Assembly (NCBI RefSeq): GCF_003334385.1
Contig: NZ_QOWN01000004.1
Strand: one strand, 5' to 3'
DNA from: Escherichia coli
GTDB lineage: Bacteria; Pseudomonadota; Gammaproteobacteria; Enterobacterales; Enterobacteriaceae
Length of the DNA: 64,000 bases
A program made the translations under genes and the position numbers. The notes under the pieces were generated by a model. The model searched no databases. It worked only from the letters and a program-made list of their open reading frames with translations, and was not told the DNA's origin. Shown piece by piece: positions 49,029-49,344 of the stretch. Numbering within the stretch: the first letter of the stretch is position 1; every line of letters starts with the position of its first letter.

Positions 49029-49041
49029 GTCAAAATGTAAG

Positions 49042-49067
49042 CCCTTTGTGTAAAACAAAGGGTTTTT
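49042..49067 (+). terminator. Intrinsic terminator separating the modification and helicase modules
   Basis: Hairpin ccctttg-tgtaaaa-caaaggg followed by ttttt, 14 nt after the DpdB-like stop. Confidence 0.75.
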
Positions 49068-49344
49068 GTCATTTCTAGGCCAATAATTTCATATTGGAAC
49101 TAAATGTTGGGTACGATTAGTAGTGTATTTAGCTACGCTAAAACTTAGTCAAAACCCACTGATTTTAATTATTTTTCTATAATTGTGATCGCTGTCACTC
49201 TGCAAGATAATGATGAGAAATAATTTATCTCCTGATTACAATTGCTAAAAAATCATTCCCACCATATATTAAATTACATGCATACACAGCGATATTGTTC
49301 GCATCGCAATATGATGCTATTCGCTACAGCTAATAAAAAATTAA

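Follow-up and report, generated by a model that had tools for sequence, protein, structure and literature searches.

The 316-bp spacer between dpdB and dpdE in a Dpd (7-deazaguanine) restriction-modification island of Escherichia coli is, taken as a whole, likely to be a junction between the two halves of the system, where an intrinsic terminator closes the modification unit and a separate promoter opens the restriction unit under modulation by the cyclic AMP receptor protein (CRP). The spacer occupies positions 49029-49344 of a 64,000-nucleotide stretch of contig NZ_QOWN01000004.1 (assembly GCF_003334385.1), hereafter the window. The parts of this reading differ in strength. The existence of two transcription units at the gap is well supported by the comparisons described below, and the combination of a terminator with a promoter of the second unit's own is highly probable. 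Relative to the initial annotation, which was made from the sequence of the window, the analysis adds the predicted location of this promoter, a conserved CRP-like box, a palindromic block, and the role of the gap as an exchange boundary between modules.

The spacer and its homologues

The spacer lies in an island inserted at leuX, where a P4-type integrase gene (43938-45182) is found downstream of the tRNA-Leu(CAA) gene (43667-43751). Judged by its genes, the cargo of the island is a complete Dpd system, in the order dpdC-dpdA-dpdB, the 316-bp gap, and dpdE-F-G-H-I-J, with dpdK and dpdD past the end of the window. The dpdB gene (47895-49028, plus strand) ends with a TAA codon at 49026-28 and dpdE starts at 49345, which leaves a gap of exactly 316 bp. 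This gap cannot be shortened, because an in-frame TAA directly precedes the ATG of dpdE. It is the sole gap above 100 bp within the dpd cluster, the remaining ones ranging from -14 to +99 nt. Its GC content (31.3%, vs 51.3% for the window) is among the lowest 1.5% of 316-bp windows, and an inverted-repeat search revealed a single strong repeat, the terminator described below, together with low-complexity AT matches. The initial annotation had described the gap as AT-rich and noncoding, which the boundaries of the open reading frames (ORFs) and the base composition bear out. Two other regions of the window, located upstream of the island (~28400-29500 and ~31600-32700), have a GC content as low as that of the spacer (<=31%).

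The region 48600-49800 is 100% identical in 46 complete genomes, including those of E. coli O145:H28 RM13516 and O104:H21, and a sensitive blastn search of the spacer against 5,426 E. coli genomes returned 46 near-identical copies only. The spacers of the other E. coli Dpd variants are unrelated in sequence to the one of the window. For the comparisons given below, we used 13 homologous junctions in which dpdB, the spacer, and dpdE are in tandem. Their DpdE proteins are 54-100% identical to that of the window, and their sources are E. coli, Klebsiella, K. aerogenes, Serratia, Yersinia, Hafnia, and other assemblies. Their spacers have very similar lengths (300-318 bp) and compositions (28-34% GC). 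The pairwise identity among them has a median of 53% and a minimum of 41%, and despite this overall divergence, their alignment shows conservation that is confined to discrete blocks.

A covarying hairpin downstream of dpdB

The predicted intrinsic terminator of the modification unit (49039-49074, plus strand; TTTTTGTCATTT) consists of an 11-bp stem that pairs 49039-49049 with 49055-49065, a 5-nt loop (GTAAA), and a U-tract from 49063, which gives a tail of the form TTTTT(G)T..TTT. The hairpin begins 10 nt past the stop codon of dpdB. Its 5' flank is a short block directly 3' of this stop codon (49029-49038, plus strand; GTCAAAATGT in the window, consensus GTTAAAT) that stands out in both the conservation profile and the alignment. 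In the window, the hairpin has a minimum free energy of -16.1 kcal/mol (z = -3.9), and none of 200 shuffled sequences folds equally well. A clean intrinsic terminator had initially been placed at 49042-49067, a range that covers the G+C core of the stem and the T-run, and this claim holds.

We judge the hairpin to be real because it sits just 10 nt from the stop codon, folds stably, and is conserved with covariation. A stable stem-loop is present in all 13 spacers, at most ~15 nt from the dpdB stop codon (-13.5 to -22.5 kcal/mol), and is mostly followed by a T-run. The stem sequences vary between spacers, with compensatory double changes in 9 of the 11 consensus pairs. Overall, 85% of the cells are paired. 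The covariation seen here is attained in none of 500 shuffles, and sliding the register by 1-3 columns clearly lowers the score. The more distant E. coli variants have unrelated hairpins at the same site (z = -3.1 in a variant where the two modules are convergent). As read from these patterns, the hairpin is a genuine, selected terminator-type structure, whose termination efficiency we infer. As to more distant gaps, the one between dpdB and dpdE in E. coli O103:H2 12009, a strain whose DpdE is just 34% identical to that of the window, has 436 bp and 41% GC (locus L003, 9427-9862). Its sequence is unrelated to that of the spacer of the window, and it folds into long G+C-rich stem-loops (-42.5 kcal/mol over 134 nt, z -1.8), with no simple terminator.

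A predicted promoter and leader upstream of dpdE

The AT-rich spacer has four promoter-like matches on the plus strand, and just one of them coincides with peaks of conservation. This predicted sigma-70 promoter of the restriction operon (49242-49270, plus strand) has a -35 hexamer TTGCTA (49242-49247), a distance of 17 bp, and a -10 hexamer TATATT (49265-49270). The hexamers match the consensus at 9 of 12 positions in our scan, and the start of transcription is predicted at ~49276-49278. The homologues have TTGCTT or TTGATT, followed after 17-18 bp by TATATT or TATTAT, and their scores are 8-9 out of 12 in 12 of the 13 junctions and 7 out of 12 in Yersinia.

Transcription from this promoter would produce a leader of ~68 nt (49277-49344, plus strand), which is predicted to be unstructured and to lack a Shine-Dalgarno (SD) sequence. 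Its A-rich end (AATAAAAAATTAA) precedes the ATG of dpdE and is conserved, and none of the homologues has an SD. The initial annotation had assigned a weak ribosome-binding site to the SNF2 helicase gene, dpdE; in fact, the 21 nt before the ATG have no SD-like tetramer at all and are A-rich instead. The lack of an SD implies that the translation of DpdE is probably inefficient. A search for a consensus RNA structure in 11 leaders gave no consensus base pairs, and the leader of the window folds no better than shuffled sequences (z = +0.26).

A conserved CRP-like box

Upstream of the predicted promoter we found a CRP-like box, TGTGA-TCGCTG-TCACT (TGTGATCGCTGTCACT, 49184-49199), that has one mismatch to the palindromic consensus TGTGA-N6-TCACA. 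Its centre (49191.5) lies ~85 bp upstream of the predicted start. The 64 kb of the window contain two sites with at most one mismatch to this consensus, vs 1.8 expected by chance, and the expectation for any given 316 bp is ~0.009. The other site (43535-43550; TGTGACAAAGGTTACA) is between ahr and the leuX tRNA gene.

No element of the spacer is better conserved than the box, which has zero or one mismatch in 11 of the 13 spacers, where the half-sites are kept and the central N6 is variable. When conservation is computed in bits, with weighting of the sequences and correction for the AT-rich background, the half-site columns reach 1.60 bits, vs 0.93 for the N6 and 0.78 for the mean of the spacer, and the 5+6+4 architecture ranks first at the box among the 188 possible placements in the alignment. 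The C that follows TGTGAn is kept in 12 of the 13 spacers, as in the extended CRP consensus, and the box keeps a distance of 47.5-50.5 bp to the -35 hexamer across homologues. We also considered a class II arrangement (-41.5), which was rejected: the -10-like AATAAT near 49219-49224 that it would use sits in the least conserved part of the spacer. Taken together, the chances that the box functions as a CRP site are about even, and they are lower for any particular mode of action of CRP.

The two modules have different arrangements and histories

The modification and restriction modules are found in other relative orientations, and in these arrangements, convergent or divergent, the restriction module must own a promoter. 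In E. coli 13C1079T and MS14384, the leuX site has an inverted restriction module, convergent with the modification module. In 13C1079T, dpdB is followed by a 23-bp gap with a bidirectional hairpin and then by dpdD-K-J-...-E on the opposite strand. The modules are divergent in Shewanella algae, where they are separated by 656 bp, and most of the distant lineages have dpdE-F-(G)-H without dpdA/B/C within 6 kb upstream. A scan of species-representative genomes with a DpdE alignment gave mostly generic SNF2/RapA matches and 11 distant true DpdE loci, which are informative on the layout of the modules, not on the spacer. The locus of 13C1079T has some further particularities (L005, 8484-9301). The gene queD, of the preQ0 pathway, is directly upstream of dpdE and is followed by its own hairpin and 455 bp of noncoding DNA; the locus is flanked by insertion sequence remnants, and its integrase is degraded.

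The histories of the modules differ as well. Relative to the window, DpdA and DpdB are 87-97% identical in all enterobacterial loci, vs 93% down to 32% for DpdE/F/G. In E. coli O103:H2 12009, DpdC/A/B are respectively 99, 96.5, and 96.3% identical to those of the window, and DpdE/F/G 33.5, 32.7, and 31.6%. The megablast similarity of 113 E. coli genomes ends at the stop codon of dpdB, and the sliding identity goes from 93-98% over most of dpdB to 83-86% in its last 300 nt and ~40-60% in the spacer. On passing from one side of the gap to the other, the GC content rises from 36-48% to 54-55% (dpdC having 36%). Considering the promoter ownership in the other layouts and the differing histories of the modules, the spacer is, as we read these alignments, both a transcriptional and an exchange boundary, and the comparison of loci shows that the two halves of the system evolve and move as separate cassettes.

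The initial annotation had proposed two independently regulated modules, for modification and helicase. What stands of this proposal is its two-unit part, in view of the covarying terminator, the conserved -35 and -10 hexamers, the inversions of modules, and their decoupled histories. The downstream unit is more than a helicase module, as it comprises the whole restriction operon dpdE-F-G-H-I-J-K-D, and the upstream one is dpdC-dpdA-dpdB.

Evidence against the junction and alternative explanations

Several points weigh against a terminator-promoter junction with CRP modulation. The 13 spacers are phylogenetically related, and counts among them are not independent. The simple terminator pattern is found 4 times in the surrounding 4.5 kb, vs 4.5 expected by chance, so a bare match to it is weak evidence. 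Intrinsic terminators can be leaky, and some read-through from dpdB to dpdE is possible. The preferred dpdE promoter was picked by conservation alone from several promoter-like matches. As for the box, it is the match to the consensus, and nothing else, that points to cAMP-CRP as the binder. The canonical faces for class I CRP sites are -61.5 (as in lac), -72.5, -82.5, and -92.5; relative to the predicted start, the centre of the box lies between -82.5 and -85.5, with a 3-bp variation among loci, which means that it does not sit cleanly on them. Two of the 13 tandem spacers, that of Yersinia (L087) and that of locus L092, lack the box, which was not found in the more distant E. coli variants nor in Shewanella either. 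Finally, the literature searched yielded nothing on the transcription or regulation of dpd, nor on a control of Dpd by CRP. In the two spacers that lack the box (L087, 3683-4000, and L092, 77-376), the aligned position has 4-5 mismatches. The promoter hexamers of the Yersinia spacer are weak too (7/12), and this suggests that control has been rewired or is decaying in these lineages.

Among the alternatives, the one that survives best is an H-NS-silenced junction, a possibility raised by the initial annotation, where the AT-rich spacer would nucleate H-NS and the conserved elements would counteract silencing through CRP or a LysR-type transcriptional regulator, e.g., LeuO. We consider it possible, at somewhat less than even chances. 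The GC content of the spacer, in the lowest 1.5% of the window, is in line with it, and dpdC is AT-rich as well. Furthermore, the cas operon of E. coli is under the control of H-NS, LeuO, and CRP (PMC10013973). However, conservation in discrete blocks is typical of specific sites rather than of general AT-richness, and the high-affinity H-NS motif TCGATAAATT, which has 7 matches in the window with at most one mismatch, has none in the spacer. H-NS binding or silencing is thus plausible from AT-richness alone, and the idea is compatible with the proposed junction rather than an alternative to it.

It is improbable that the box is something other than a CRP site, either the operator of another factor, encoded by the island or the host, or a -35-like element of an antisense promoter toward dpdB. 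This would account for its position off the ideal class I phase and for promoter-like matches on the minus strand that use the half-sites as -35 (GTGACA, ATCACA), and the island does have a conserved 77-aa ORF that could be called upon. Yet the match reaches the wider CRP consensus, with TGTGAnC (the C being kept in 12 of 13 spacers) and TCAC retained, and all hosts with the box are Enterobacterales, which have a CRP of TGTGA-N6-TCACA specificity. In addition, we found no conserved -10 for an antisense promoter, and searches of the 77-aa protein against NCBIfam, PADLOC, and PHROGs assign it to no DNA-binding family.

A single operon from dpdC to dpdD, transcribed mainly from the upstream promoter across a leaky hairpin that just attenuates transcription or stabilises the upstream mRNA, with the spacer as a recombination scar devoid of a functional promoter, is quite unlikely. 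Such an operon would accommodate the shared strand of all the genes of the system in the window, a simple terminator pattern that is no more frequent than expected by chance, and the match of the dpdE promoter hexamers at just 9 of 12 positions. It does not account for a hairpin with a U-tract and covariation in 13 of 13 spacers, nor for the -35, the -10, and the box being peaks of conservation in a fast-diverging spacer, which is unexpected for a scar, and the convergent and divergent layouts require a promoter of the restriction module. Lastly, that the spacer encodes a small protein, a small RNA, or a riboswitch (e.g., preQ1-sensing) controlling dpdE is hardly credible, even if the noncoding stretch is long, a 7-deazaguanine-sensing leader would make biological sense, and there is a 43-codon TTG ORF at 49242-49373, since an Rfam scan of 42-52 kb (E<=1) matched the leuX tRNA only, with no riboswitch (preQ1 included) and no small RNA, no small ORF is conserved by position or sequence in the 13 spacers, and the leaders have neither consensus pairs nor a fold better than shuffles.

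Gene content and the control region of the modification module

The modification module (45618-49028, plus strand) comprises dpdC (45618-46574), dpdA (46627-47898), and dpdB (47895-49028), separated by 52 and -4 nt. DpdC was identified with PADLOC (E=1e-159, over residues 1-317 of the 318-aa ORF). DpdA, a TGT-like transglycosylase, and DpdB, a DGQHR/ParB-like ATPase, match the NCBIfam equivalogs NF041059 (580 bits, cut-off 200) and NF041060 (474 bits, cut-off 300), respectively. The restriction module (49345-64000, the end of the window, plus strand) is tightly packed, with intergenic gaps of -14 to +12 nt. It includes dpdE (49345-52401), dpdF (52414-54864), dpdG (54864-55763), dpdH (55760/55766-58909), dpdI (58896-59630), and dpdJ, which starts at 59630 and continues past the end of the window. 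DpdE, F, G, and H are all above the NCBIfam cut-offs (980 bits for the equivalog of DpdE, cut-off 500), and dpdI, J, K, and D were taken from E. coli O145:H28 RM13516 as annotated in RefSeq, the corresponding region of this genome being 100% identical. RefSeq gives the symbol dbpB to the gene of DpdB in all the E. coli records examined (e.g., L001 15296-16429), which is probably a typo.

Upstream of dpdC, we found a hairpin (45523-45550) after a 77-aa ORF, then a predicted promoter, a G-rich ribosome-binding region, and the GTG start codon. This predicted promoter of the dpdC-dpdA-dpdB unit (45562-45590, plus strand) has a -35 hexamer TTGTCA (45562-45567), a distance of 17 bp, and a -10 hexamer TAGCTT (45585-45590). 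It is below the threshold of the simple scan and was therefore proposed on its conservation: the hexamers and the context of the GTG start (TGTGAGC) are conserved or invariant in 8 loci. The invariance of TGTGAGC also led us to take the GTG at 45618 as the start of DpdC (318 aa). RefSeq has at this position a shorter protein of 284 aa, labelled hypothetical protein and not named DpdC. The scan of the 64 kb revealed no CRP-like box with at most one mismatch upstream of dpdC; hence, the two modules differ in their predicted control regions. The 77-aa ORF (45285-45518) is located between the integrase gene and dpdC, and every tandem-type locus has it conserved. As a candidate regulator it was not retained, having no match in NCBIfam, PADLOC, or PHROGs, and an excisionase or a regulator are both possible functions for it.

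One further element of the spacer deserves mention. A palindromic AT-rich block (49075-49097; consensus TTAATGAAAT-A-ATTTCAT) is as conserved as the coding flanks. In the copy of the window, the left half is degenerate (CTAGGCCAATAATTTCAT), and a local palindrome, CCAATA-N6-TATTGG, overlaps the block. The changes between homologues are not compensatory, which suggests that the block acts at the level of DNA and not as an RNA helix, and the E. coli variant with an inverted restriction module has a similar block (GATATGAATATTTAATATTCGATGG) upstream of its dpdE, which indicates that the block travels with the dpdE side. The block is a candidate distal protein-binding site, and it may resemble the generic sites of LysR-type regulators (T-N11-A, or TGAA-N5-TTCA).

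A model for the expression of the two modules

In the model that we favour, dpdC-dpdA-dpdB would be transcribed from the promoter at 45562-45590 up to the terminator after dpdB, with RNA 3' ends at 49066-49074, and the eight-gene dpdE-D operon from its own moderate sigma-70 promoter, with a start near 49277. The unstructured leader of ~68 nt, devoid of SD, would keep the translation of DpdE low. cAMP-CRP would most likely bind the box and modulate the restriction promoter, either by class-I-like activation from upstream or by counteracting silencing. The lethal arm of the system would thereby be coupled to the carbon and energy status of the cell, and the protective arm would have a separate promoter without the box. 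We infer the start site, the termination efficiency, the binding of CRP and its sign, and any involvement of H-NS from the sequences analyzed here.

Relation to known systems

The founding paper on Dpd dates from 2016 (Thiaville). In Salmonella Montevideo, the Dpd system is found at a leuX site, and consists of DpdA/B/C for modification and DpdD-K for restriction (PMC5699537, PMC10164549). The island of the window has the same gene families, the leuX insertion site, and a P4-type integrase; it differs in that dpdD comes last in the restriction operon and dpdC first in the modification unit. The Dpd literature that we searched, including these two papers, is silent on transcription units, promoters, and regulators.

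The elements of the proposed junction are each familiar: the terminator, the sigma-70 promoter, and the CRP box. Split promoters for restriction and modification genes are classical for restriction-modification systems, as in EcoKI (hsdR vs hsdMS) and in the type II systems controlled by C-proteins. The likeness with Dpd lies in having the protective and destructive functions in different transcription units, such that modification can precede restriction in a new host. In contrast, no gene for a C-protein or a comparable regulator was found in the Dpd island, the putative control element is a box for a host factor (CRP-like), and the restriction unit is an operon of eight genes and ~17 kb. 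The dnd/dpt phosphorothioation systems combine modification by dndB-E with restriction by dndFGH, and DndB is a regulator. They share with Dpd a modification module that has a protein of the DndB/DGQHR family and a restriction module that is separable and variably linked. Their chemistry and proteins are different, and nothing suggests that DpdB binds the spacer.

The predicted CRP-gated restriction arm is what would be new. The box resembles that of class I CRP promoters in that a moderate sigma-70 promoter is preceded by TGTGA-N6-TCACA, at a distance that is constrained among homologues; it differs in that its centre, predicted at ~-82.5 to -85.5, does not fall cleanly in phase. Among defence systems, the type I-E CRISPR-Cas operon of E. 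coli and the type I-F operon of Pectobacterium are controlled by H-NS, LeuO, and cAMP-CRP, with CRP repressing cas in the former and activating it in the latter (PMC10013973). They have in common with Dpd that they are horizontally acquired defence operons with an AT-rich upstream region and a CRP site, but their CRP sites were shown experimentally, whereas the binding to the Dpd box is predicted.

Dpd systems are among the largest restriction-modification systems known, and the junction mapped here bears on how the island avoids killing its host on arrival and on when it is armed. The mosaic boundary at the spacer is also relevant to the diversification of defence systems under phage pressure. 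One may go further and propose, although we hold this broader idea to be rather doubtful, that enterobacteria keep a near-invariant module that writes dADG and repeatedly swap or invert, at the dpdB 3' end and spacer, an eight-gene 'reader/killer' cassette that comes with its own cAMP-CRP-gated promoter and is armed by the carbon and energy status of the cell. If true, this gating would provide a host-metabolic checkpoint, which would also delay restriction after the island enters a naive cell.

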